This document shows, in pieces, positions 8,620 through 55,491 of a stretch of DNA of 64,000 nt (the first letter of the stretch is position 1; each line of letters starts with the position of its first letter). This DNA comes from a virus. Taxonomy: Duplodnaviria > Caudoviricetes. The stretch lies in the IMG/VR virus record IMGVR_UViG_3300025723_000013, one strand, 5' to 3'. A program made the position numbers and the translations under genes. The notes below the pieces were generated by a model that was not told where the DNA came from, ran no database searches, and saw nothing but the letters and a program-made list of their open reading frames with translations.

Positions 8620-10440
8620 TTATTTTTTTAAGCCAGACAATCTCAAAATATCTTCAAAAGCCGTTTGATCCGGTTTTTCCATCATGTTTCTATTTTTGAT
8701 GTTTTGTTGTAGCACAGAATTAAATCTTTCTGGACCAAGTACTCGATGCATATGCATAAACTTTTTGGCCAATCGTGCTGCATGCGGACCACCTTCTTTT
8801 TCTATCTTGGTGATAACGCCGGTTTCGCCCAATGTAAAGGTTCCTTCCTGCACATTATAAAACCCTTGGATTCTTTCGGCTACATCTGTGGGAGAAAGTT
8901 TTTTCTTATTGGGTTCTCTTTCTATTTCTTCATCTTCTTCGGTAGGGGACGGAGGTGCTATTCCGGGTTCAGCTCCAGCAGGCGGCTGCTCTTCGGCTGG
9001 AGGAGTTTCTGGAACTTCAGGAGATGCGACTGCTTCCGGTGGAGGAGTTTCCTCCGGCTCGGCGGCTTGTTCTTCTTTATCGCTGTTATCTAGACCTAAT
9101 TCTTTGATGGCATCTTGATCATTTTTTTCATGTAACCAGGATCTCAGTATAGTTCTCATATCGCCATTGGGACCGGCTGCTTCGATAGCGTCTGATAAAT
9201 CTTGATCTAATATTCCAATATCCTCCAACGCCTGCATGGAAGGAGTGCCTTCTAATCCTGTTGTGTCTAACTCGCCGCTATCGAGAAGCTTTTTCAATTG
9301 AGAAATCTGATCGTCAGTCGGGCGGCCTTCTGCTACCTGTGTTGTCCATTCAGAAAATTCTGAAAATTCTTTTATTTCTTTTTCACACTTGCATTGGGTT
9401 TCATACATGCCACATTCGTCGCATGTTTCTTCTCGAGTTTCGCTTACCATGTCCGCTAGATTGACTTCGCCAATTTCTTGCATGATTTTGTGTATTAATG
9501 GAAAGTATTGAACTAGATTTTCATTAAATTTATTAACAGTAAATTGACTTTTGTAGTGTTCCATGGTTGCCTGATCCATGACCATTTGATCATCTTCGGA
9601 TGAGGCATGCTGACCTTCCTTCCATTCTTCGTAACCGCGTTGTGTGCTAATACGTTTCATACATTCACGCAACTGATCTAGTTTTCCACATGCTCTTTCT
9701 AAAATCTCATTGGCCTCGGTCTGCATTGTGTCATTGACCACATGATGAGCATGCTTTTTAAATGATGCCAGCTGAGCAATTTCCTCTGCCATCTTGACTA
9801 TTTTTTGTCCATGATGATCATGTGGTCTTCCATCATTGGCCACATGTCGACCCATGGCTTCGGCCAATCGTAAAGAATTTATTGGGCATTTATAACGTTC
9901 ACCTGCCTGGTTCTCCACATAGATAGCTCGGATATGTCTATGGCGACCACCGTCACTTACAGGAGCACTGTGTCTTACTATAATTTTTACTTTTTCCAAC
10001 ATGGGCAAATAACTGCTTCGTGAGCTGCCATACATTCTGCTTTCCGCCATTTTTTCTTCCTTAGATCCGGTTGATGCTAGATATTGAAAATCATCTTTGT
10101 TCAAATTGGATTTTGTTATATCTCTTGTATCAAAACGTAGCATTCTACGTTTGGCAAATAGTCTCATTTCTCTTAAAAAATCAAACCATACTCCTTGAGT
10201 AAAACGATCTTGACCTTGAAGTATTCCTTTTCCGTAAAATATTTTCAACGTGCCAACGTCATTGATGCTGATGCTGACTCTGCCAAGATTGTTGCCTTCA
10301 AATACAAAGTCAAAATCAAAAAATCGGGCTGCTAATGGATCTGATGTAATCTTGCCATTTTGATCGCCCATTTCTAGGTTAGAATAGCGACTGCGTATTT
10401 TATCAAAAAGATCTTGAGAAATGAGTTCTATAGCGTTCAT
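8620..10440 (-). CDS. Hypothetical protein, probable virion/head protein
   Basis: 606-aa ORF with own TAAATA promoter; acidic Pro-rich linker; C-terminal ILRLSGLKK. Confidence 0.7.
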   Translation of the reverse strand: MNAIELISQDLFDKIRSRYSNLEMGDQNGKITSDPLAARFFDFDFVFEGNNLGRVSISINDVGTLKIFYGKGILQGQDRFTQGVWFDFLREMRLFAKRRMLRFDTRDITKSNLNKDDFQYLASTGSKEEKMAESRMYGSSRSSYLPMLEKVKIIVRHSAPVSDGGRHRHIRAIYVENQAGERYKCPINSLRLAEAMGRHVANDGRPHDHHGQKIVKMAEEIAQLASFKKHAHHVVNDTMQTEANEILERACGKLDQLRECMKRISTQRGYEEWKEGQHASSEDDQMVMDQATMEHYKSQFTVNKFNENLVQYFPLIHKIMQEIGEVNLADMVSETREETCDECGMYETQCKCEKEIKEFSEFSEWTTQVAEGRPTDDQISQLKKLLDSGELDTTGLEGTPSMQALEDIGILDQDLSDAIEAAGPNGDMRTILRSWLHEKNDQDAIKELGLDNSDKEEQAAEPEETPPPEAVASPEVPETPPAEEQPPAGAEPGIAPPSPTEEDEEIEREPNKKKLSPTDVAERIQGFYNVQEGTFTLGETGVITKIEKEGGPHAARLAKKFMHMHRVLGPERFNSVLQQNIKNRNMMEKPDQTAFEDILRLSGLKK

Positions 10441-10446
10441 AGTGTA

Positions 10447-12042
10447 CTATTTATGTAAAGTGCTGATGTAAATCGGCATAGGCAAATCATGTTCTTCCAA
10501 ACCTTTATGATCTCGCATTTTTTCATAAATTACAGGATCCCAATCTTGTAAAATCATGATCATACGCATGGATAACAATAGGCTTGAAACCAAATCATCG
10601 TGCTGACCTGATTTTGCCTTGAATGATATGCCCGAAGCTATAAATGTTTTAAGTTCGCTGATTAAAGTTTTGCTGTTTAATTTTATTTGCTTGCTTTCAA
10701 TCAACTGCTTTAGTTTGGCACAGGCAGCAATTTTGGCTGAATGTGTGGTATTGAAGCCTCGTCGGAATCGTCTCACATGACCTTTTTTAATAGGTTCGCT
10801 TAGAAACAGTCCAGGAAAACTGTCCTCGCCCAATTCATTTATAGCCGCTATGGCGCTTTCGCCAATGGTATTATTTTCAACACTGTAGTAAATGCTACTG
10901 GTGGCGCCCATTTTATTACATTCGTCGTCTACATATTTGATCATATCTCGGAAAATTCTGGCTTGAGCTTGCACAGGAGTAGTATTATGATGCCATTCAC
11001 CCACTTGTTCTAGACTGGGTATTTCCAAAACTTCTATAGCAGCAAAATCACCACCTGTGCCCAAACTGGGGTCGAGGCTGAAAACATATGTCGAACTAGG
11101 GTCTATTCTTTTGTACCATCTGGCCTGTCCCATTTTCATAAAGGGTTCCTGCCCTTCCAGATCACTTAAACTGATGCTGTTGATCAATGTTTCACTGAAA
11201 ATCAAAAACTCGCATTGATGTTCACGACGGAATCTTTCTTCGCCCACTCTACTACGCTCAGTATCAGCCCAGGTTTCATCTCGTTCAGGATGTTGATTCC
11301 ATATGGCTTTGAATGGATAAAATCCATTTCTTCCTAATTCTGTTTCATTTCCAAACTCGTCAAATTTTTTATTAGCTTCATTCCAAATTTGAGCAAACTG
11401 ATCCTCGTCGCTGTTTGGAGTGCTAGTAATAATGGCTTTACCACCTGTGGCCAGAGTAGGGCTGATAGAGGTCCAAAATTCAACAGCAATATTGGGTTCC
11501 ACATATGCAAACTCGTCGGAGTAAAGCAAGGACACAGACATACCTCTACCTGTGGTTTCTGTAGTAGTTTGGGCTATTATTCTCGATCCGTTTTCAAATT
11601 CTACACTTTGTTTGTTATAGCTGGTAACACCTGCTCTTATCCAATCTGGGCAGGTTTCATAAGCATATCGTAATCGCTGCATGATTTCTTGTGCGCCCGA
11701 ATACTTGTGCGCGGCTATGAGAATAGTACTGTTATCCATAAACATCGCATACCATAGCAAATAACCCACCGCGGTGGTGGTTTTTCCCAGCTGCCTTCCA
11801 AGCATGTTAATGCTGAACCGATGTGTATGATAACTTTTTAGTAATTCCTCCTGATAATCATACGCCTCATATTTTAGTTTGCCCTGCACCGGATGCTGTA
11901 TAAAAAAATAATTTCTTAAGAAATGGGCAGGACCTGTGTCAGGATCTTGACATTTGATTAATTCTTCAATCTGAGCTTTGGTCCATTTTTGTTTTTGGTT
12001 TGCACGTTTTATTAAGACCCCATCGAGATTTTTACTACCCAT
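10447..12042 (-). CDS. gp17: Terminase large subunit
   Basis: GRQLGKTT Walker A, LLYSDEFAYV Walker B, ITSTPN, SLDPSLGTGGD, HDDLVSS nuclease motif. Confidence 0.95.
   Translation of the reverse strand: MGSKNLDGVLIKRANQKQKWTKAQIEELIKCQDPDTGPAHFLRNYFFIQHPVQGKLKYEAYDYQEELLKSYHTHRFSINMLGRQLGKTTTAVGYLLWYAMFMDNSTILIAAHKYSGAQEIMQRLRYAYETCPDWIRAGVTSYNKQSVEFENGSRIIAQTTTETTGRGMSVSLLYSDEFAYVEPNIAVEFWTSISPTLATGGKAIITSTPNSDEDQFAQIWNEANKKFDEFGNETELGRNGFYPFKAIWNQHPERDETWADTERSRVGEERFRREHQCEFLIFSETLINSISLSDLEGQEPFMKMGQARWYKRIDPSSTYVFSLDPSLGTGGDFAAIEVLEIPSLEQVGEWHHNTTPVQAQARIFRDMIKYVDDECNKMGATSSIYYSVENNTIGESAIAAINELGEDSFPGLFLSEPIKKGHVRRFRRGFNTTHSAKIAACAKLKQLIESKQIKLNSKTLISELKTFIASGISFKAKSGQHDDLVSSLLLSMRMIMILQDWDPVIYEKMRDHKGLEEHDLPMPIYISTLHK
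10448..10453 (-). promoter_or_regulatory. T4-type late promoter TAAATA, 7 nt before ATG
   Basis: TAAATA-GTACACT-ATG; overlaps terminase stop. Confidence 0.7.
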
Positions 12043-15036: not shown

Positions 15037-15428
15037 TTTACTTTTGGAGTATTGTCTATGATCTGTCTGGTAACTTCCTGTGATGGCTGGAATGATTGAC
15101 TAGCTCCCAGCAAACTAGTTTTCAGTCTATTATAATTTAATATTTCGGCAACCAATCCGCTAATCTCAGTTGATCCCAGTGTTCTTAATGTATCTAAAAT
15201 CTGTAGAGCATTATATCCGTCTTGCAATGCCTGCGTGAGTATTGTTATTGCTGTTGATTCTGCGGCAACTGCTTGAAAACCTCTGCTCTCAAAAAAACCC
15301 GTCATAGCGATTAGCTCGTTGTTGTTTATAGTGATTGGAGTGCTAAAGTAATTGTTCATTACCTGTATTGTTTGATCAGAGCTGGATGGAGCTTTTTGTG
15401 AAGGAATATTAGTGTACAAAGCTGTCAT
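15033..15428 (-). CDS. Hypothetical protein
   Basis: 131-aa ORF coupled to both neighbours. Confidence 0.65.
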   Translation of the reverse strand: MTALYTNIPSQKAPSSSDQTIQVMNNYFSTPITINNNELIAMTGFFESRGFQAVAAESTAITILTQALQDGYNALQILDTLRTLGSTEISGLVAEILNYNRLKTSLLGASQSFQPSQEVTRQIIDNTPKVK

Positions 15429-16603
15429 ATTATTGGTCCGACACCTAATTTTTCACTGTAGGAAGGTAACTCAACTTGCGTTGCTTGTGTGGCATTTGAG
15501 GGTTGAGATCCTGCAGGAACACTTATTCCTGCAGGATTGGTGCTTTGTGATTCATTCAAAGACTGAGATGATAATATATTTGGTCCTGAAGTTTTCAGCA
15601 GTAGACTGAAAAATTTAACATTAGAATTAGGGGGTATAAAAATACTATCTGGTAATCTGGATCCAGCAGCCGCAATTGTTTCGCTGTTTATTCTATCAAG
15701 ATCGCTGTTGCCAGGATTGTTCAAACTGCCTCTAATATCCGTAATTCCCGATACTGACCCATTTTGATCTACAACTGTGGGATTCCCTTGTCCTCCAATG
15801 CCGATGGTACTGAAGGCTGTATCATAATGTTCAGGGCTATTAAATCCACTTTGAGAAATAACGCGATTATCCGGATTGGTATCATAAATCATTGTTTCGT
15901 ATTCTATGATCATTTTGCTGGCTGCTATTTTACTTCCTGCTGACTGATCTAACGATTCATGCGACCAGTCTTTTATCAAGGGTTTGACCAATTTAAACGC
16001 TGTGTATTTCTTTTGATTTAATTGAAAAATATCTATTGATTCAATGAAAGGTATGGATTGTCCATTACTCAATCCAAATTTGTTGGAATTGCTGATGAAG
16101 TCGTTGTATTTGTTATCGCTATATTTAGGCACTGTAGACGCTTGCGTTATACTCACACGTCCGGTGTCATTGCTGTCTCCGTAATAGTATGTATAATAAC
16201 TTTTCCAAAAATTAGTTGAAAGATTTGCCATGTCATCATGAAACGTGATAGAAATTGGACTGTAATTTATTTTCTTTTGTATAATGTGCTTTCTATTATA
16301 CTGATTCATTATTTCGGTATCAATTGTGAATTTAGGCAAATCTACCTGTTTGGATAACAAACCTATAAATCCTTTGTATCTGCCATACCATCTATTAAAT
16401 TCTATATATGCAACAGTATCGGTAATAGCCTTGGCTATATCCGCATTAATGTTGATCCTTACATAATATATCCATCCAGCTTTTGGGCTAAATTCATAGA
16501 TACGATCTGGCGTACTTCTTAGATATAATCTAGAAGCATGTTGGTAGTCTCTAAGATTTACCCCAGCACTGCCGCTTAATTGATTTACCCACCCGCTTGA
16601 CAT
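15425..16603 (-). CDS. Tail tube-like / tube initiator protein (gp19/gp54 family)
   Basis: KQVDLPKFTIDTE..QYNRK..INYSPISITFHDD and LVKPLIKDWSHESLD..IEYE match tube fold. Confidence 0.7.
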   Translation of the reverse strand: MSSGWVNQLSGSAGVNLRDYQHASRLYLRSTPDRIYEFSPKAGWIYYVRININADIAKAITDTVAYIEFNRWYGRYKGFIGLLSKQVDLPKFTIDTEIMNQYNRKHIIQKKINYSPISITFHDDMANLSTNFWKSYYTYYYGDSNDTGRVSITQASTVPKYSDNKYNDFISNSNKFGLSNGQSIPFIESIDIFQLNQKKYTAFKLVKPLIKDWSHESLDQSAGSKIAASKMIIEYETMIYDTNPDNRVISQSGFNSPEHYDTAFSTIGIGGQGNPTVVDQNGSVSGITDIRGSLNNPGNSDLDRINSETIAAAGSRLPDSIFIPPNSNVKFFSLLLKTSGPNILSSQSLNESQSTNPAGISVPAGSQPSNATQATQVELPSYSEKLGVGPII

Positions 16604-16610
16604 AGTGTTT

Positions 16611-16616
16611 TATTTA
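16611..16616 (-). promoter_or_regulatory. Late promoter TAAATA, 7 nt before ATG
   Basis: TAAATA-AAACACT-ATG after terminator. Confidence 0.7.
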
Positions 16617-21518: not shown

Positions 21519-22286
21519 TTAACCTATGACAAAATACATGGGCTGTTGATTATCAAAGTTGTTGATCAGTTCTTTGTCCAGTTCTGCGGCCTTGTCAATC
21601 CCTTCTTTCTTGAGGGCTGTGCCATTCAGTTGAGTATTTCCGCCCTGCGGAGCAGCAATCGATGCAAATTTTTCGCGTGCCTCGCCCAGCATGATCTTGG
21701 CCATGGCCAAAGCGTAGTCCTTGATCCAAACTCCTGCATAGGGATCTTGGAATAGCGCAAAGTCTGGACGATAATTGTAAATCCATGCCAGTACATTTTC
21801 TTCTGTTTGAGGACGCTGAGATACACGTAGTTTTTTAGTGGTAGGATTAAAATCAAAGTTAATAAAGCTACCAAACATTTTACCAACTAGATTTTGATAG
21901 CTGGCAAACGCAAAGTAGGTCCCTAATCCACCCATGTTGCTGGAGCTTAACAGATAGGTGTTGGTGTAGGCTAGATTGAATGGTTCAAACAAGGATCCAC
22001 CATCGCCGCCGCCTGATCTTGAACCTATGCTGCGACGAAACAGTTGCCGAACCTGCATGACTTCTTTGGGCATGTAATATTCATTTTGGTTAACTTGCAA
22101 GGTTAAAAAAGCAAAACTTTCTTCGGTAGAGTTTTGGCTGCGCTGACGATATCTTGACAGAGCCTTGTCAATGGCGGTATTGTAATGTACTGGATCAAGT
22201 TCTATATCTATCATTCCATCACCTAAAAAGGTTTTGATATAGTCTATCACAAGCTGTCTTTGATTATCTAAGTCGTTGTTATCCAT
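21519..22286 (-). CDS. gp13: Neck protein (gp13-like)
   Basis: IDIELDPVHY..AL, WIKDYALAMAKIMLGEAREKF..GG..LNG..LKKEG. Confidence 0.85.
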   Translation of the reverse strand: MDNNDLDNQRQLVIDYIKTFLGDGMIDIELDPVHYNTAIDKALSRYRQRSQNSTEESFAFLTLQVNQNEYYMPKEVMQVRQLFRRSIGSRSGGGDGGSLFEPFNLAYTNTYLLSSSNMGGLGTYFAFASYQNLVGKMFGSFINFDFNPTTKKLRVSQRPQTEENVLAWIYNYRPDFALFQDPYAGVWIKDYALAMAKIMLGEAREKFASIAAPQGGNTQLNGTALKKEGIDKAAELDKELINNFDNQQPMYFVIG

Positions 22287-27390: not shown

Positions 27391-28488
27391 TTAGTATGCT
27401 CCTAAAAATTGTGTAATCTGCCACTGACTGCGCAAAGCGCTGTATTGCACAACAACGTCGTACTCCTTGCCCGAAGTCATAGTCAGTGGAAATGTTACTG
27501 TTGTTCCTGTTGAAGGTAACTTATAGGAGGCGCTCATGGTCAATGTGTAGGAGCCACCACTGGACAAAATGCGCAAGTAGCAGGTGTCGTTGTCTCCTGT
27601 GCCGGTTGGAGTGTTGATTGTTAAGTTATTGGTAGCGGTAATTGCATAGCGTACAACTGCATTAGCTACCACGGGTGTAATAGTTGCTGCGTAGGCTAAC
27701 GGAGTGTAGGCACTGGAGCCAGAGGCGTTGTTAGGAACTGCTACGCCATTGATGTACAGCCCTGTTGCGTTAAGCGTTCCTGCTCCTTGATTACCGCCGG
27801 TAGCTGATCCAACAACTACGCCACCGCTTGATCCAATATCCAAGGTCAATGAAAAATCGGTAATTTGGTTACCTCCCAATATTGTCGAATTAGACGAATA
27901 GAAAGAAGCGCCGCCGCCGTATCCACCTAAACGGAGAACGGTGGGTTTTACATTCGTACCGCCTTGTTTGTACCAATTTCCACTACCGTCGCCTAAATAA
28001 GCACTGCCAGTAAAGAACGCATCGTAAGCCGGAGAATTGCCAATATTAGAAGAATATCCAGCAATTACAAAACCATAAGCTGTGCCGCCATTCACTGATA
28101 AAGTTGCATTTGGCGTACTTGCATTGCTGTTGACTGAAACCAATGAGTTGTTAATTCCAACTGCAACATTGACATAATTTCCAGCTATGCCCGACGTTGT
28201 AGAATAGATAGGCGCTGCACCAAACGTCCCTGAACTGTTAATTTGAACTTGAGTATTTGAACCTGCAGGCACAGCAGTCGTTGATGTGGTAACAGAATAC
28301 CCATTTATATATACGCTTGTGGCTGTGATTGCTCCGCCAACCACTAGTCCACCGCCAATGCCTGCTCCACCTACTACTGTTAATGCGCCAGTCGTGGTAG
28401 ACGTTGACTGATTGCTGCCTGTCACAAACAGTTGCGAGTTAACTGTTGCTGTGCCGTATACTATTGTTCCTGATTGTAATTTAGCCAT
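27391..28488 (-). CDS. Tail fibre-associated protein
   Basis: 365 aa S/T/G-rich; GALTVVGGAGIGG; GGNQGAGTLNA; TAAATA-ATACACT-ATG. Confidence 0.7.
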   Translation of the reverse strand: MAKLQSGTIVYGTATVNSQLFVTGSNQSTSTTTGALTVVGGAGIGGGLVVGGAITATSVYINGYSVTTSTTAVPAGSNTQVQINSSGTFGAAPIYSTTSGIAGNYVNVAVGINNSLVSVNSNASTPNATLSVNGGTAYGFVIAGYSSNIGNSPAYDAFFTGSAYLGDGSGNWYKQGGTNVKPTVLRLGGYGGGASFYSSNSTILGGNQITDFSLTLDIGSSGGVVVGSATGGNQGAGTLNATGLYINGVAVPNNASGSSAYTPLAYAATITPVVANAVVRYAITATNNLTINTPTGTGDNDTCYLRILSSGGSYTLTMSASYKLPSTGTTVTFPLTMTSGKEYDVVVQYSALRSQWQITQFLGAY

Positions 28489-48600: not shown

Positions 48601-50371
48601 GAGCTTCCGGTCCGCAACTGTTGAATGTTTGGGGCGCAACGCTGGTACCACTGTTAATTATGCTGATAATGATGTTGTAACCTGTAACAATTTCTTGACC
48701 AGCCAACGAACCATTGATTAATGCTGTATTAATGGTTTGTGACGTTGCTGTGCTAAACAAATTTGAGTTTAGAATCTGTTGATTTTGTATGATGGCTTGG
48801 CTGAGAGTATTGATGTAGTTAAGTGCTGCAATTGTTTGCAACTGTTGGCCTTGTATGAGACAAATATTGCCATTATAATAGGCCAATCCAGCTTCAACCG
48901 CTTTTTCATTGCCACCAAATGCAGCATCATAGGCCACATTTTGAACATTAAATCCCACATCTCTGGAAAATAGGGCCGGGGTATACACAAAATTTCTAAA
49001 ACTGGTTGAGGTGTTAAGTTGCGGAATAGTAATTGTGGCACTGGTAGCAATTTGATAATTTACCCAAGCCACTGTTTGATCCTGTATGAATGAAAGATTT
49101 GACAACAACAAGGTTCGAGCATTTAAGAACCCGGCGTCTTGAGGTCCACTTATCACATTCAATCCATTTACTATGGTTCCTGTAGAAACAGTTACCACTA
49201 TGGTAGTTGTATTTGATGCAAAGGTAGAGGTTCCTACAGCTTGTGGAACTTGTACTGTTTGATTGGGCACAAACATAGTTCCATCAACCAGCCATGGACC
49301 GCTTTGATTGGTGCAATTTTGTATGTATGGAGAATGGTAAACGTTTATCTTGGCACCATTCACTTGCGGAGGAAATGCTGTGGCGTATGCGCCTCTGTTT
49401 ACTCCATTGGGATACACGCCAGGCAACAACCCGCTTCTTCCGTTGAGGAATTGCATCTGCGCAAGATAGCATCCGCTTTGAACGTGGAATAGATCTTGTG
49501 TTTTATTGATGGGCTCGATGCTGGTTGTTCTTAAATCGTCTCCTACGATTGCGGTGTTGGGCTGCAAAAGTATGGGATTGTTTTCTAGGTAATGTCCGCT
49601 ATAAACCTTGATCATTGTGCCAGGAAGATAATAGGGACTGTTTACTGCACCGCTGATGGTGCGACAGGCTCTGCTGGGATCAGCTGCTCTACCATCGTTG
49701 GTGTCATTGCCGTCAACTGTGACATGCAGCACATTGGTGATTACCGGAGCAGTGCCTATAGGATTTTTTCCTTGCACTCTTAATTCGGCGTTGATCTCAA
49801 GTAAATTACTGCCCGGATTTATCGTGATAGTTCCGGTGCTGCTGATTTGATTGGTAATTATATTTGATATATAGCCATCTAACCAGGATTTAGAAGCACT
49901 GCCAAGATTGTATTGTTGATCAACGGCAGGAATGATATCGGAGGTTATTTCTGAACCAAAAGTCACTGTGTCGGTGGCTGTGTTATTTCCTAAAATAATA
50001 TTGCCATCGGCGGTGATATTTCCTGTAGCATGCAGATTGCCAGTTACCAGGGTATTGCCAACGAGATTTATCATGCCGTTGGCACTTGGTTGCAGCGTTA
50101 TTGGACCCACAGAAGTTGCAATAGTTCCGGAGTTTATTATCAATTGGCCTAATTGTGATTGACCAGTTCCGGGGCCTGTATAAACAACTTTTAGATTGTT
50201 GGCGTTAATGGTGCCATTAACATCCAATTCATAGGCAGGATTAGTTTTCTTGATACCAATGAGTCCACTGGAAACATTCAAGTATAATAAATTTGTTTCA
50301 AATGCTAAGTCTACGCCGTCGCGTAGTAAATTTGGCGCTAGCAACGGACCTGAGATGCGACCAATGGCCAT
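42698..50371 (-). CDS. Giant virion protein: split pectin-lyase-like beta-helix with helical repeats (2557 aa)
   Basis: HVTVDGNDTNDG..CRTI, IVGDDLRTT, SPYIQNCT ... DAFTQINQGG..YAQLVS.FT..NSNSNFG; ten RD.G..D..DL..GN repeats. Confidence 0.8.
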   Translation of the reverse strand: MAIGRISGPLLAPNLLRDGVDLAFETNLLYLNVSSGLIGIKKTNPAYELDVNGTINANNLKVVYTGPGTGQSQLGQLIINSGTIATSVGPITLQPSANGMINLVGNTLVTGNLHATGNITADGNIILGNNTATDTVTFGSEITSDIIPAVDQQYNLGSASKSWLDGYISNIITNQISSTGTITINPGSNLLEINAELRVQGKNPIGTAPVITNVLHVTVDGNDTNDGRAADPSRACRTISGAVNSPYYLPGTMIKVYSGHYLENNPILLQPNTAIVGDDLRTTSIEPINKTQDLFHVQSGCYLAQMQFLNGRSGLLPGVYPNGVNRGAYATAFPPQVNGAKINVYHSPYIQNCTNQSGPWLVDGTMFVPNQTVQVPQAVGTSTFASNTTTIVVTVSTGTIVNGLNVISGPQDAGFLNARTLLLSNLSFIQDQTVAWVNYQIATSATITIPQLNTSTSFRNFVYTPALFSRDVGFNVQNVAYDAAFGGNEKAVEAGLAYYNGNICLIQGQQLQTIAALNYINTLSQAIIQNQQILNSNLFSTATSQTINTALINGSLAGQEIVTGYNIIISIINSGTSVAPQTFNSCGPEAPLVSAELLLHNNRNFLQTQVANYVAATYPTFVTNLAKSYRDSGFLIDAISQDIIVGGNTKTIEAALSYFTSSKDDSGVAQTAVINNFSLFKNIYTTGPSAVPATVVGPNLGPGYTNAQVILNENIQFVQTEVSAYIRSLFTATYTLTPVQQALSYQYIGTVLTAIAADTAAGGNANTIQAAIQYYLNYNSLQLLPTSALTYMQQLCVNIVNNMQNTGLYQTLIAQITNLAPATAAEAQSIDTNLDLITQIVTQGPKSSSYPSTIAVNALSTNTNAFNAYNLLEANRAFISAELTGWIDNTFGNGFNYNTSTCYRDTGLIVDSLALDLLQQDNSQAIFAGLQYWSQYGYTGAIAQEITTTTNAIKYASQLAQKIVVNSTVTSLQTATSQVFGTTSTFASSATTTVALLFSTITNILSNGVTGITNQIVPNGSSSTNVGLINSYNILLANQNFIAAEVVAYVNKNNPGFVYNQATCYRDTGLIVDSISLDLLFPGNGYTQSNFAGLQYWSQNGYASPTFLQEITTTTNTINYINNLATQIVTNTVTGKRYQTAVQQITSSTTATIAEAQTIYNDFNLIVGIINSGTAGVTDLIVPNGISASTNTNVKTAYWLLEANRNYLQTEAIAYITATSPYGYSYNVNKFYQTMGSMVDSVAFDLLYGGNRQAIQTGVYYYAFTSTNTSTAIPNEIPQTTAAYNFINSLANFIITGQRIPTQYQTTVTQVLSANTGTTADVFNVNKEISLIVNIINSGTSAALAPNSIAITATTTATTVYAAQLLAANRTFIQAETVAYINNQFATGFQYDQVKCARDVGYIVTSVAFDLLHGGNRQSIQSGVYYYNYNPNSSVITYELAQITAAYNRIKQVSSQLILGQTVTPSPGNAVSPITSTNTGTSADVAFIANDIDIINSIINTGPNIPYAKKPILLASTTTQSTINAYNLLTANRAFIQNELIAYINYYFAQPFYYDKVTCVRDTGIIVDSVAMDLLYNGNTQSTFAGLQYWNQAGLTTGTQSLLTATVDTVQTLGIYINQIITYYLSSTATITANVNTLTNILTSGTANVTNLIVPNGLPSLNTNTVMAYELIQANRSVLQTQTVTTITNKYNTLGINTATLTRDVGNMIDALSFDLLHGGNRQTIQTGVYYYTFSNTSSALVTAAGNEIPQVAAAYDHLKYIMASVIQNQPLVPSYQVVYPQVIEPAFMGVTPVLGSIEAPICVDSINYLNAICLNVISNTPIVSSTFDNSTVTRYLSTITSTATQYFNYNLIGGQYAATAINRNFHIITNVIQNGPNAAPPAFTGSGLFATTGISSDDVRNSTTVLSFTNSNNVYTIKLSTPTIGDAQNGTLYFGNPAVFPATNSQVEALSLQYTGSSSTWNSRKVDVIGAMGGSLVDGSVVSDISPIQSFVYDAFTQINQGGVGIHVTNNGYAQLVSVFTIFCSVGVQVDNGGIASIVNSNSNFGDICLLSNGHGPLEFSGTIYNPPYPTYIYSYSQSTATSIGQYFPLGYYPQNGTLEVYLPDTSYRPHIGLLMEIVPPVNYFNGYLNTVTTYINSAGYPGFLTGSPSVGVLTTGSITIKGIDTTGAAVGNTVYIRDQYGNTGTTSTNNIFVPYTFPGTTIVAIGYQSITLNQGLGNGGQDPTNSNLFTNNNYFNVYFCGNAYYTVDSSTINDSFGHTLGTSILSTASVQVDQIGPEVASLRYLNTLIANTLTNANILGPINFINTSINYITSLTSSTTLPIVNASGNIVTYTTKVSGSTVTNTINIVKPSTVPATIPPAGAGAAIIVISNNIQSYVDSVIVYIKQTYPTLPFKEYKCRRDVALILQQLIYDLTYGTNYYSVYSGLSYWYRAGTHHIVRIEETVSNPLLFPDGATVNFYQRSYMSASGYTFEYVGAGVTYSALPQRGVADPIQGQEVVQVNNGKIFFTSTDQNGDFRIGPGLVISQATGVLSGRTFTKSLFANLTPFILAIEGR

Positions 50372-50473
50372 TAGGACTCCTCATACCACCGAGTTTCACG
50401 GGGAACCACATTACATTGCGGGTTTACCACAGTATGTTCCTGCTGGTAAAAGCCCCAACATCGATTGTATTTA
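50372..50473 (-). promoter_or_regulatory. Late promoter plus structured ~95-nt leader with 16-codon uORF
   Basis: TAAATA 50468-50473; uORF 50461-50411; hairpins 50423-50450 and 50406-50421; GAGGAG SD. Confidence 0.55.
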
Positions 50474-50497
50474 TTAAGGAATTCTTAAATGTTTCGG

Positions 50498-51304
50498 TTA
50501 GGACTCAAATCGATTGCCTAACGGTCCTGCTGGAAAATATCCATCAAACCCCAACAAAGAGAATACAGGTTTGGCAGGTACCGTTCCTGTAAACTGGATA
50601 TAGGTGCCCGTATTTGGGTAGGATACTGTTATTACCGTGCTGGCCGGAATGGACGTTAGAGTTGGATTGCTGATTCCAAGTGCATATCCATTAAATTGAT
50701 TGGTAAATGTAAACGAAACACTGGTAACAGTTGTGCCCGGCTGTATTCCAACTCCGCTAACGGGTCTCCAATATCCTGATTCTCCGGCGTCTATATTTGT
50801 TATCGTGTTAAGATAGATTGTGGTTACATTACTGGACGTGGAAACTGATAAAGATGCAGTAGAGGCAGATGGATTGGTTATTAGCGAGTAATTTGTGTTA
50901 GGCACTTGATAGACATTGTCAACAAAAACTAATACATTTTGTGGTTTACTGGTGCTGATATTGTAAGCCAATGGTCCAAACACAGTGTCATTATAATTGC
51001 CATATCCTAAATTTTGAGCAGTGATGGTGGCTTGTCTCACAGTCCTAATAATTTCCCATGGAGTAACACTTGCTCCTGAATTATAAATTGCGGGATTATA
51101 AACTTCAAACTCGTTTAATGTTGTGTTATATCGCACAGTGCCTGTGGTCAAAACTGCAGGAAGGGTCACACGTTGCGCAGTGTTTCCGGAAGGTAATTGC
51201 AAAGTGGCAGCACTGTTTGTGACAATCCTACCATCAGGATAGACTGAAAATTTATCGTCTACCGGATCTTTACTATATAATGATAATTTTTTAAGGTATC
51301 TCAT
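50498..51304 (-). CDS. Hypothetical structural protein
   Basis: 268 aa; LPSGNTAQR..GTVRYNTTLNEFEVY; VLVFVDNVYQVP. Confidence 0.7.
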   Translation of the reverse strand: MRYLKKLSLYSKDPVDDKFSVYPDGRIVTNSAATLQLPSGNTAQRVTLPAVLTTGTVRYNTTLNEFEVYNPAIYNSGASVTPWEIIRTVRQATITAQNLGYGNYNDTVFGPLAYNISTSKPQNVLVFVDNVYQVPNTNYSLITNPSASTASLSVSTSSNVTTIYLNTITNIDAGESGYWRPVSGVGIQPGTTVTSVSFTFTNQFNGYALGISNPTLTSIPASTVITVSYPNTGTYIQFTGTVPAKPVFSLLGFDGYFPAGPLGNRFES

Positions 51305-52667: not shown

Positions 52668-53186
52668 TTACCATACTCTTATGACGAAGTAGTTAATTCG
52701 AGGAGCTACATTGTGCGGCCACGAAGGATGACTTTGAAATCTTAAAGTTGCCCCAAAACTAGGGTCTGATATTATGGTCGGAGTGAGTGTGGTTCCCCAA
52801 AAAACTCCTTCCCCGCCGTAATTTTTTATGATACTGAGATCGTCGCTGGCTAGATTTTCTCCAAGCGGCTGTCCGAGATACTGTAATTGTATCACATCAT
52901 CTGTGATCCTAGCGCCTCGATCAATGCCCAGCATGGCTTCTAGTCCTGATATAGTGGGCGGTAACGATGCTATGGCAAAGTTTGTTAGAGATAGATAGTA
53001 GGTTTTTTGTTTGACATCATTAACATATGTATTGGCAATATGGGCCAACGGTTTAACAGTAGAAACAAACGTATTGGTCTGATTCCGTAAATTGTAAAAA
53101 TTACTGCCGTCATCTACCCATGCGATATGTTGTGCAACTTCGCAATATTGACTTACAGCGTTAGGATATAACCAATTGGTAGGCAT
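52668..53186 (-). CDS. Hypothetical protein
   Basis: 172-aa ORF; TAAATA-GTCGT-ATG. Confidence 0.7.
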   Translation of the reverse strand: MPTNWLYPNAVSQYCEVAQHIAWVDDGSNFYNLRNQTNTFVSTVKPLAHIANTYVNDVKQKTYYLSLTNFAIASLPPTISGLEAMLGIDRGARITDDVIQLQYLGQPLGENLASDDLSIIKNYGGEGVFWGTTLTPTIISDPSFGATLRFQSHPSWPHNVAPRINYFVIRVW

Positions 53187-53205
53187 ACGACTATTTAACT
53201 AAAAT

Positions 53206-54047: not shown

Positions 54048-54233
54048 TTATCTTCCATGTCCTTTAATCTTGCAACCCTTTTGAAAACTGGCATTGGAAG
54101 TGGGCGGGCATTGATTGGGATTGCGAATATTCTTGCGTGTGGCCCAGGCATATCCTGCTTGATGTCCTGAGCAGTCTTTGGTGCATTTGGAACCTTTAAA
54201 GTCTAATTCTGTTATGATTTCATGTATACGCAT
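54048..54233 (-). CDS. Small Cys-rich protein (61 aa)
   Basis: MRIHEIITE..CTKDCSGHQAGYAWA..C..SFQKGC; own TAAATA 4 nt upstream. Confidence 0.65.
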   Translation of the reverse strand: MRIHEIITELDFKGSKCTKDCSGHQAGYAWATRKNIRNPNQCPPTSNASFQKGCKIKGHGR

Positions 54234-54258
54234 CGGGTATTTATTTTATTCTCTCAAC

Positions 54259-54309: not shown

Positions 54310-55491
54310 TTACTTGTAGCTTACTGTAGCGCTGTTGATCGCCACTTTGGACAAGTAATCAGCTGCATTGCCTAGTGACGATGCAGTATTTGACAACTCA
54401 ACATAACCGTAACGGGTTAGGAAGCCAACTACTGGTTCAAAGGTGCTTGGATCTAGTACAACACCGGAGCTCATTAGAGGAATATATGGGCAATAGAAAG
54501 CAGGTGCGTCTGCTTCGCTTGAACCCTTATAACCAATTAGAACCTGGTTGTTGTTGTCTGTATCAACCTTGTAGGCATCAACATAAACTTTCATCGCGCC
54601 ATTTAATGTACCAACAAACTTGGTGTTTGTTGGAGCTTCAAATGTGCCTTCGGTTGTTCTTGCGAACGCAGAAGTTGTTGCGCTCTGGAGGATTGTTAGA
54701 GCCTGGTTTGAAACCACAGCCCAGTTGCCTGCGCCACGACGTGTACGCTGTGCAATTAGGTTGCTGACACGGTTGATCTGGATAGCTAGTGCAGCATGTT
54801 CGTCACCGACGAATGTGGCTGTACCAGAAACTAGAGCCTGGTCATATGTTTCATCAACTGAGGCCAAACCACGTAGCGAAGCTAGGATTTCCTGGTCGAT
54901 TTCAACCGTGATTTCCTGGGCTAGTGCTGCCATGATTTCTGCTTCGATGTCAATTCCCTGCTGAGCCTGTGCATCCTGTGCAGCCTCAAAAGTCCAACGA
55001 GCTGATAGCTTGCGTGACTTGGCTTCTACTGGAGCCTTGAGGATCTGGATGCTCATTCTCTTACCTGGCTGACCTTCTAACTGGCTGGTTGAAGCGGCTT
55101 TTGGAATCGCGTCAACGTTGTTACCAGAGTAGGCAGCAGCAATCTTGAACGGGCTTAGTGCTTCTTCACCGGCTACTACTGCACCGTCGCCGCTGCTGTC
55201 AGCATAACGAACACGTAGAGTATGGATTTGACCAACAGGGCCAGTCATTGGCTGTACGCCGATGATTTCGTTGGCAATAACTGTGGGCATCACACGTCTG
55301 ATAACTGGTAGAATTACACGGTTAAGTGTTGCTACGTTACCACTGCTGGTTGCACCTGCTGTTGCAGCTTCTGCCAAGTAACGACGAGTGTTTTCTAAGC
55401 AAACCTGCATAGAAGAACGACGATTACCTGATAGGCCTTCAAGCAGAGCTTCCTTTGTCTCGGACCATCTTTCATTTAATAACTGTGACAT
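54310..55491 (-). CDS. gp23: Major capsid protein
   Basis: LPVIRRVMP..IIGVQPMTGPVG, VEAKSRKLSARWTFEAAQD, EIDQEI, FYCPYIPL, TRYG. Confidence 0.97.
   Translation of the reverse strand: MSQLLNERWSETKEALLEGLSGNRRSSMQVCLENTRRYLAEAATAGATSSGNVATLNRVILPVIRRVMPTVIANEIIGVQPMTGPVGQIHTLRVRYADSSGDGAVVAGEEALSPFKIAAAYSGNNVDAIPKAASTSQLEGQPGKRMSIQILKAPVEAKSRKLSARWTFEAAQDAQAQQGIDIEAEIMAALAQEITVEIDQEILASLRGLASVDETYDQALVSGTATFVGDEHAALAIQINRVSNLIAQRTRRGAGNWAVVSNQALTILQSATTSAFARTTEGTFEAPTNTKFVGTLNGAMKVYVDAYKVDTDNNNQVLIGYKGSSEADAPAFYCPYIPLMSSGVVLDPSTFEPVVGFLTRYGYVELSNTASSLGNAADYLSKVAINSATVSYK

Follow-up and report, generated by a model that had tools for sequence, protein, structure and literature searches.

The Tail-Fibre Leader and Its Surroundings

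The IMG/VR virus record IMGVR_UViG_3300025723_000013 (Duplodnaviria; Caudoviricetes) was analysed as one window of 64,000 nucleotides (nt), and attention was given to the minus-strand spacer that precedes a gene for a tail-fibre-like protein of 2557 amino acids (aa). We found that this spacer is the 5' untranslated region (5' UTR) of a late tail-fibre mRNA and that it carries a conserved, single-copy structured element. The element represents a new cis-acting 5'-UTR RNA family, although one of a familiar kind, the structured leader. The features framing it are as follows.

50372-50497, minus strand: leader spacer, 126 nt between the open reading frames (ORFs) of 268 aa and 2557 aa
42698-50371, minus strand: tail-fibre-like gene, 2557 aa, N-terminus MAIGRISGPLL..., from the ORF and its PHROG matches
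50498-51304, minus strand: upstream ORF, 268 aa, from the ORF listing

The first 1000 residues of the 2557-aa protein matched tail-fibre families of PHROG with E values from 6e-30 to 4e-19. The window spans a block of structural genes from a T4-type phage. Its major head protein (54310-55491) matched phrog_138 (E 1.6e-99) and was 68-70% identical to the counterparts in the RaK2/GAP32/CBB jumbo phage group, and the source phage, which is uncultured, is related to the T4-like jumbo phages of the RaK2/GAP32 type. An initial annotation had named in the spacer a TAAATA motif, an upstream ORF (uORF), several hairpins, and a GAGGAG Shine-Dalgarno (SD) sequence ahead of the 2557-aa gene, all of which are present in the window. 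It had also read the spacer as a riboswitch- or attenuator-like leader of that gene. A structured, riboswitch- or operator-like leader directly upstream of the ribosome-binding site (RBS) of the fibre gene was borne out by the strong conservation and covariation that we found.

Conservation across Phage Contigs

Relatives were collected from IMG/VR with a query made of the fibre protein's first 300 residues, and thirty-odd loci matched from residue 1. The N-terminal 300 aa were only 49-80% identical among these loci, while the leaders were conserved at the nucleotide level. A scan of IMG/VR with a 22-nt core pattern retrieved at least 119 contigs, with one core copy each among the matches listed, and a variant of the core (A7:U22, numbered as below) was carried by 17 further contigs, giving a total of at least 136. 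Among the matches listed, all 102 distinct sequences contained the TAAATA box, a hairpin, the core, an AAGGAG or GAGGAG SD, an ATG, and the N-terminal motif MA[IV]GRI[ST]GPLL. Pairwise identity reached 92% in the core versus 46% at the third codon positions of the adjoining protein-conserved codons. Considering that the neighbouring synonymous sites are saturated and that the core is nearly letter-identical in more than 130 contigs, its conservation goes beyond chance. The sequence directly flanking the core was not conserved.

A covariance model was built from the core and scored on the window and on large phage records. It gave one hit of 72.5 bits in the window, where the next best reached 9.7, and one strong hit in each of five phage records of 245-355 kb; neither the window nor these five records held further copies or weaker cousins of the core, and no hit lay beside fibre homologues without the N-terminal domain. 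Cultured phages gave no match to a 68-nt query from the core, and the motif is known only from phages without a cultured representative. In prokaryotes, represented by one genome for each of 185,579 species, the pattern matched 25 times, always without its context, and about 17 matches were expected by chance according to our estimate from database size. Rfam 15 returned no match at E<=10 for window positions 49900-51000 or for four other members, in agreement with the initial annotation, which had recognised no known RNA family, and the whole window gave no Rfam hit at gathering thresholds. The core sequence was not found in the papers searched, and no structured RNA before a phage tail-fibre gene was found in Rfam or in those papers.

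The Core Pseudoknot

The nearly invariant core of about 45 nt contains an H-type pseudoknot, followed by a hairpin called P3. The pseudoknot has the following parts in the window.

50404-50431, minus strand: core pseudoknot, from the covariance model and covariation
50429-50431 with 50417-50419, minus strand: S1, U50431 G50430 U50429 paired with G50419 C50418 A50417
50425-50428, minus strand: L1, GGUA
50420-50424 with 50404-50409, minus strand: P2 (also S2), AACCC (50424-50420) paired with G50409 and GGUU (50407-50404), U50408 being bulged
50410-50416, minus strand: L3, AUGUAAU, with the conserved form AUGNAAG

The core was numbered so that pair 7:22 corresponds to 50431:50417 and pair 19:30 to 50420:50409, which makes P2 the pairing of positions 15-19 with 30-35. 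S1 is made up of pair 7:22, the invariant G8:C21, and U9-G20, and it stacks on P2 with zero nucleotides between S2a and S1b. With U7 located 5' of P2 and A22 within its loop, pair 7:22 crosses P2. Two crossing helices, each with comparative support, were thus found, and this is what defines an H-type pseudoknot.

The support for S1 came from two scans of IMG/VR. When position 22 was set to anything but A and position 7 was left free, 17 contigs were obtained; when position 7 was set to anything but U and position 22 was left free, the same 17 contigs were obtained. All of them carry A7:U22, with zero single-change intermediates, and they span at least eight sequence backgrounds. Counted as distinct sequences, 79 have U:A and 10 have A:U at this pair, and a gene-start tree of 127 sequences requires ten label changes. 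For P2, a scan with position 19 other than C and its partner free yielded six contigs (four A19:U30 and two G19:C30), and pair 19:30 thus occurs as three pair types, C:G, A:U, and G:C. RNAalifold independently predicted P2, with AACCC paired to G-GGUU and the U bulged. Positions 8, 18, and 21 showed zero variation in the IMG/VR or metagenome scan; positions 8 and 21 did not vary across 241 million metagenome records, and the single metagenome match was a chance one. Over the whole model, 97.5% of the cells pair and 29 are double-change cells, a result equalled by 0 of 500 shuffles, in an alignment that was fitted to the model and deliberately enriched for variants, the partner columns being always left free.

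The structures drawn in the initial annotation fared differently. RNAfold of the spacer does give its hairpins UUUACCA.CAG/CUGUGGUAAA and CCGCA/UGUGG as well as the enclosing GGGG/CCCC, and RNAfold of the isolated core also gives CCGCA/UGUGG, but these structures were unsupported across the relatives. The first hairpin was paired in 74.7% of cells, and 274 of 500 shuffles did as well; the GGGG/CCCC enclosure, at 48%, was no better than shuffles; and the CCGCA/UGUGG register is broken in exactly those sequences that covary at position 19. The whole spacer folded with a marginal z of -2.0, and 9 of 200 shuffles folded as well. A pseudoknot had also been proposed, between CAUACU and a GGUAUG next to the SD. 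One does exist, but it is a different one, formed between the P2 loop and the strand on the 5' side of P2; only 46.7% of the cells pair in the proposed version, and 436 of 500 shuffles were as good.

The covariation also bears on a reading at the DNA level, according to which the leader is conserved either as a homology anchor through which co-infecting phages swap fibre modules or as a DNA site bound by a protein, with the RNA fold incidental. The fibre genes, from 350 to 2557 aa long, differ from each other while the leader and the N-terminal domain are common to them, which fits modular exchange, and the A:U labels on the gene-start tree sit where reassortment or recurrent change would place them. 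However, compensatory changes keep the pairing in P1 (the 5'-terminal hairpin described below), P2, S1, and P3; some of the pairs are G-U, workable on the mRNA strand only; no single-change recombinants at 7/22 occur among the 17 variant contigs; and conservation does not extend to the immediate flanks of the core. We consider conservation at the DNA level extremely improbable.

Some members depart from the common form of the core. In the closest relative, a 328-kb contig (L002, 3852-3907; L004), the GG of L1, invariant elsewhere, is replaced by AU, with no compensating change in the core. An extra A is present in L1 of L012 (2902-3010; GGUAAAACC), and one more nucleotide lies between P2 and P3 in the clade of this leader; the junction lengths therefore tolerate an addition of one.

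Other interpretations of the core sequence were rejected. As protein-coding sequence, all three of its sense frames are closed in some members (by UGG-UAA, by AUG-UAA, and by UGA when position 26 is A), the indels in its flanks are not multiples of three, and the invariant block has no codon periodicity. The AUGUAA in the P2 loop is not a conserved "start-stop", its fourth base being U, C, or A among the relatives. The SD-like UAAGGUGGU was discarded as a decoy SD, since it belongs to P2 and is altered in the covarying variants. Loose likenesses to the T-box GGUGGUACCGCG, to CRISPR repeat ends, and to 16S segments were supported by no tool result.

Hairpin P3 and the Ribosome-Binding Site

The segment between the pseudoknot and the fibre gene contains two further features.

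50389-50401, minus strand: P3 hairpin, CCGUG (50401-50397), an AAA loop, and CUCGG (50393-50389), with a U-U mismatch in the window
50377-50382, minus strand: SD sequence GAGGAG, 5 nt before the ATG at 50371

In the model-fitted alignment, 93.5% of the P3 cells pair, and four of the five pairs are changed on both sides. The hairpin CCGUG-AAA-CNCGG keeps its pairing through the replacement of CCG/CGG by GGG/CCC in the L012-L015 clade, and RNAalifold recovered the outer three base pairs (bp). In 69 of 89 leaders, 16-17 nt separate the end of P3 from the AUG, in spite of a variable spacer sequence. An SD of the AAGGAG/GAGGAG type is present in the aligned relatives, and no conserved pairing partner was found for it: among 900 SD-region positions, 407 were unpaired, 300 were paired with the coding sequence, and 72 were paired with the core. 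The core ends just 5' of this strong, unsequestered SD.

The positions that flank P3, 37 and 54 (50402 and 50388), covary in a non-canonical manner (A-G 32, U-U 28, G-U 5, U-A 5, C-U 5), with a mutual information of 0.93 between the two columns in alignments A4/A5. They may form a non-Watson-Crick closing pair, or the pattern may reflect shared ancestry.

The Late-Promoter-like Box and the 5'-Terminal Hairpin

Upstream of the core, the leader has the following features.

50468-50475, minus strand: late-promoter-like box AATAAATA, a putative promoter, with the TAAATA core at 50473-50468
50462, minus strand: predicted transcription start, a G, the sixth nucleotide after the box, from T4 late-promoter geometry
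50441-50460, minus strand: P1 hairpin, UGUUGG (50460-50455) paired with CCAGCA (50446-50441), 8-nt loop
50432-50440, minus strand: variable linker from P1 to the core, differing in sequence and length between relatives
50411-50461, minus strand: uORF of 16 codons, MLGLLPAGTYCGKPAM and a stop, ATG at 50461, present in the window and not conserved

TAAATA is invariant upstream of the core wherever the leader has enough upstream sequence. Of the 30 minus-strand TAAATA sites in the window, 18 lie shortly before gene starts, in the non-coding 9% of the sequence. For the related cultured phages CBB and GAP32, the CBB study (PMC5259590) reports ATAAATA ahead of structural genes, compares it with the late promoter of T4, and describes a gp55-like sigma factor. 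By its sequence, the box described here agrees with a T4-type late promoter, which has a TATAAATA-like box near -10 in front of late, structural genes. The geometry of T4 late promoters is established and places the start about 6 nt past the box. Between the box and the first pair of P1, the most common distance was 7 unpaired nucleotides (104 leaders), which fits the predicted start.

When folded alone, P1 had an energy of -7.1 kcal/mol (z = -2.4). Its homologues vary in length and sequence, form at least 5 bp in 103 of 104 leaders, and have a median dG of -8.4 and a median z of -3.1. In the class-1 alignment, 97.4% of the P1 cells pair and 17 cells are changed on both sides, which 0 of 500 shuffles equalled, and the G-U pairs fit the mRNA strand. 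In most leaders, P1 starts within 1-2 nt of the predicted 5' end. P1 is missing in three leaders (L153, L158, and L163), in which the core follows about 9 nt after the box. In this clade (L153 at 9222-9308, L158, and L163), the fibre start codon is UUG rather than AUG.

These properties of P1 invite the explanation that the whole leader is a pure mRNA-stability device, P1 blocking decay from the 5' end and the knot with P3 forming a roadblock against decay of the 5'-to-3' or endonucleolytic kind, without any regulatory partner. P1 lies about 1-2 nt from the predicted 5' end and is free in sequence while its pairing is kept; 5'-terminal hairpins are known to stabilise bacterial mRNAs, and fibre genes can be very long. 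But a roadblock needs stable structure rather than some 30 invariant nucleotides, many of them in loops, and the predicted stability of the core is unremarkable (z values of -0.4, for the isolated core, and +0.1). Moreover, three leaders do without P1, and the constant distance to the AUG points towards the initiation complex. As an account of the whole leader, a stability device therefore seems to us quite unlikely.

The start codon of the uORF lies inside the P1 stem. The initial annotation had taken the uORF to be leaderless and had combined it with the pairing between the first loop and the SD region into a switch of fibre translation. In its favour, the window and 33 other leaders have an AUG 5-6 nt past TAAATA, the same geometry as that of the apparently leaderless late genes of the window, and the sequence of the window itself allows the pairings; a leaderless AUG in class-1 leaders is not an absurd idea. 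But the AUG is not conserved. It occurs near the 5' end in only 34 of 107 distinct leaders, and the 73 without it comprise 70 of the 104 P1-bearing leaders and the 3 without P1. Where the uORF is present, its peptide runs across the core in all three frames and stops at seven or more places, or not at all. As given above, neither the SD pseudoknot nor the first hairpin nor the GGGG/CCCC enclosure outperforms shuffles. The size of the gene, to which the switch had been tied as the largest virion gene, proved incidental, the same leader preceding fibre genes of 350-2557 aa. Such a uORF switch is highly improbable.

A further observation concerns the class-2 leaders (L084-L202), in which about 50 of the 70 longer P1 hairpins have the loop GACCA, complementary to the GGU(A) of L1, and about a quarter of the class-2 P1 loops are without ACC. 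A contact between this loop and the invariant L1 is possible.

Proposed Function of the Leader

From its position and conservation, the leader probably controls the expression of the fibre gene. We tentatively read it as a translational operator or enhancer that binds a factor, P1 serving to stabilise the 5' end, and give this reading a probability of roughly 45%. In the mechanism that we infer, the pseudoknot and the hairpin of the core would form a recognition platform for a trans-acting macromolecule, for which a phage or host protein, or the 30S subunit or ribosomal protein S1, are candidates. A factor bound at the 5' edge of the RBS would set the translation of the fibre mRNA, either by repressing or by enhancing it, and P1 would shield the mRNA from decay that depends on its 5' end. 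Invariant stems, a weak secondary structure, and the absence of an expression platform argue for a macromolecular partner, or for a heavily triplexed knot, rather than for an SD-sequestering riboswitch. For a protein-binding operator, the support is positional, namely the end of P3 at 16-17 nt before the AUG in those 69 of 89 leaders.

Several points weigh against this interpretation. No candidate binding protein was found among the neighbours, the neighbouring genes being structural or without assigned function. The covariation within the core comes down to two pairs and one P3 clade, and the remaining core is invariant and thereby neutral on the fold. Recombination, as opposed to independent mutation, could account for part of the spread of the A:U variant. 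Some of the invariance follows from the search pattern itself, although 29 of 30 protein-retrieved loci match the core pattern too. Invariant loops in a small H-type pseudoknot are a typical trait of small-molecule riboswitches as well. Finally, a nested hairpin of UGUGG with CCGCA (-5.1 kcal/mol) excludes P2, contains 7:22, and is preferred by RNAfold, and a two-state switch between this hairpin and P2 is conceivable. The hairpin is, however, broken in the position-19 variants and in L002, and a static pseudoknot is therefore favoured by the comparative evidence over a two-state switch.

Another explanation takes the pseudoknot as the aptamer of a new riboswitch for a small molecule, whose ligand would favour S1 and P2 over UGUGG/CCGCA and so alter fibre expression. 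The compact H-type knot, with its invariant loops and A-rich L3 directly upstream of the RBS, has the architecture of several known classes of small riboswitches, and the weakness of P2 (nearest-neighbour stability -2.3 kcal/mol) relative to the exclusive hairpin makes a stabilising ligand plausible; given the lack of any Rfam match, it would be a new class. On the other side, no expression platform was found, for the SD lies outside all conserved pairing, the spacer is variable, and there is no terminator. The stems are invariant and do not covary freely. The replacement of GG by AU in L1 of L002 abolishes the competing hairpin, and the element is still kept. Furthermore, a phage-only motif before one structural gene offers no metabolic logic to a ligand. 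Hence, we hold a ligand-binding aptamer to be rather unlikely, and the same doubt applies to the broader proposal that the pseudoknot is a sensor of a riboswitch-like class, responding to a small molecule or to host 30S/S1, which would gate the receptor-binding fibre by the state of the infected cell throughout a large clade of uncultivated T4-like and jumbo phages.

The position of the leader near its promoter raises another explanation, a put-like cis antiterminator that acts on RNA polymerase for full transcription of a long late fibre operon. A promoter-proximal, structured, highly conserved RNA heading a long co-directional gene block would suit such a role, and a conserved host target such as RNA polymerase might explain the invariance across divergent phages. 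But the same leader stands before fibre genes of only 350 aa, an antiterminator does not need a fixed distance to the AUG, and the likeness to put RNA is one of element order only. RNA antiterminators are not known from T4-type late transcription. We regard antitermination as very unlikely.

Relation to Known Systems

The closest analogue in concept is the leader of T4 gene 32, and the small pseudoknot riboswitches are closest in shape; both are analogies and not memberships. The 5' pseudoknot of the T4 gene 32 mRNA is an autogenous translational operator that is recognised by a protein and sets translation. As in the fibre leader, an H-type knot lies near the 5' end of the mRNA of a T4-type phage, with the RBS outside the knot. 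The gene there, however, encodes a single-stranded DNA-binding protein and not a fibre, and the fibre leader has an additional hairpin after the knot, with a fixed 16-17 nt before the AUG. The riboswitches preQ1-I/II/III, SAM-II, fluoride, and guanidine-III share with the core a size of about 30 nt, two coaxially stacked helices, invariant loops, an A-rich third loop, and a place in the 5' UTR beside the RBS. They differ from it in that the fibre leader has no Rfam match at E<=10, an SD outside the knot, invariant stems, and no alternative pairing that sequesters the SD.

Stabilisers of the type of the ompA 5' stem-loop resemble P1, which lies within 1-2 nt of the predicted 5' end and is free in sequence while its pairing is kept. 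This likeness applies to P1 only, which is dispensable in three leaders, and leaves the invariant core unexplained. The put RNAs of HK022 are likewise promoter-proximal, structured RNAs of a phage operon that act in cis; by their description, they are set apart as two stem-loops with no pseudoknot and no fixed relation to a start codon. Like the metagenome-derived orphan motifs of Rfam, the fibre leader comes from environmental sequence only, is defined by conservation and covariation, and has no assigned function, but it matches none of them even at E = 10 (window and four other members).

A widespread and sharply defined RNA element sits exactly where control of the fibre at the RNA level would act. 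Its small (about 30 nt) and extremely conserved knot is tractable for structure determination and for a search for a ligand or binding protein. Together with the conserved N-terminal codons, the motif marks the starts of receptor-binding fibre genes in metagenomic phage contigs, and the conserved leader and N-terminal domain may be the fixed anchor for the exchange of fibre modules of 350-2557 aa.

Neighbouring Genes and Late Genes of the Window

The gene order upstream of the motif is kept in 68-89 of 111 loci. The upstream gene, which encodes 268 aa in the window and a median of 187 aa elsewhere, is kept in 89 of 111 loci; it matched no Pfam family, and its PHROG matches were weak and to families without assigned function. 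Pfam gave no family for the fibre N-terminus or the neighbours either. Searches by blastn and tblastn with the spacer, the core, the upstream gene, the fibre N-terminus, and a 351-aa class-2 fibre returned nothing useful from 50,697 deposited phage records, and nothing was found in E. coli genomes. The window showed no antisense partner and no tRNA, and the minus strand of the leader showed no terminator-like site.

The fibre N-terminal domain is the only part common to all genes behind the motif. Among loci L084-L202, the same leader and an N-terminus of about 40 aa are followed by fibre genes of 350, about 500, about 1200-1350, 1523, 1922, and 2557 aa, and this spread of gene lengths suggests an exchange of fibre bodies behind a constant head.

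TAAATA boxes also stand close to the starts of other genes in the window. On the minus strand, an ATG follows 5 nt after the boxes at 53197, 22297, and 12053, and a start follows 7 nt after those at 16616 and 28501 and 4 nt after that at 54243. The genes that start 4-7 nt past TAAATA are 52668-53186, 21519-22286, 10447-12042, 15425-16603, 27391-28488, and the ORF 54048-54233. If the T4 geometry holds, the mRNAs of these late genes would be leaderless or nearly so.

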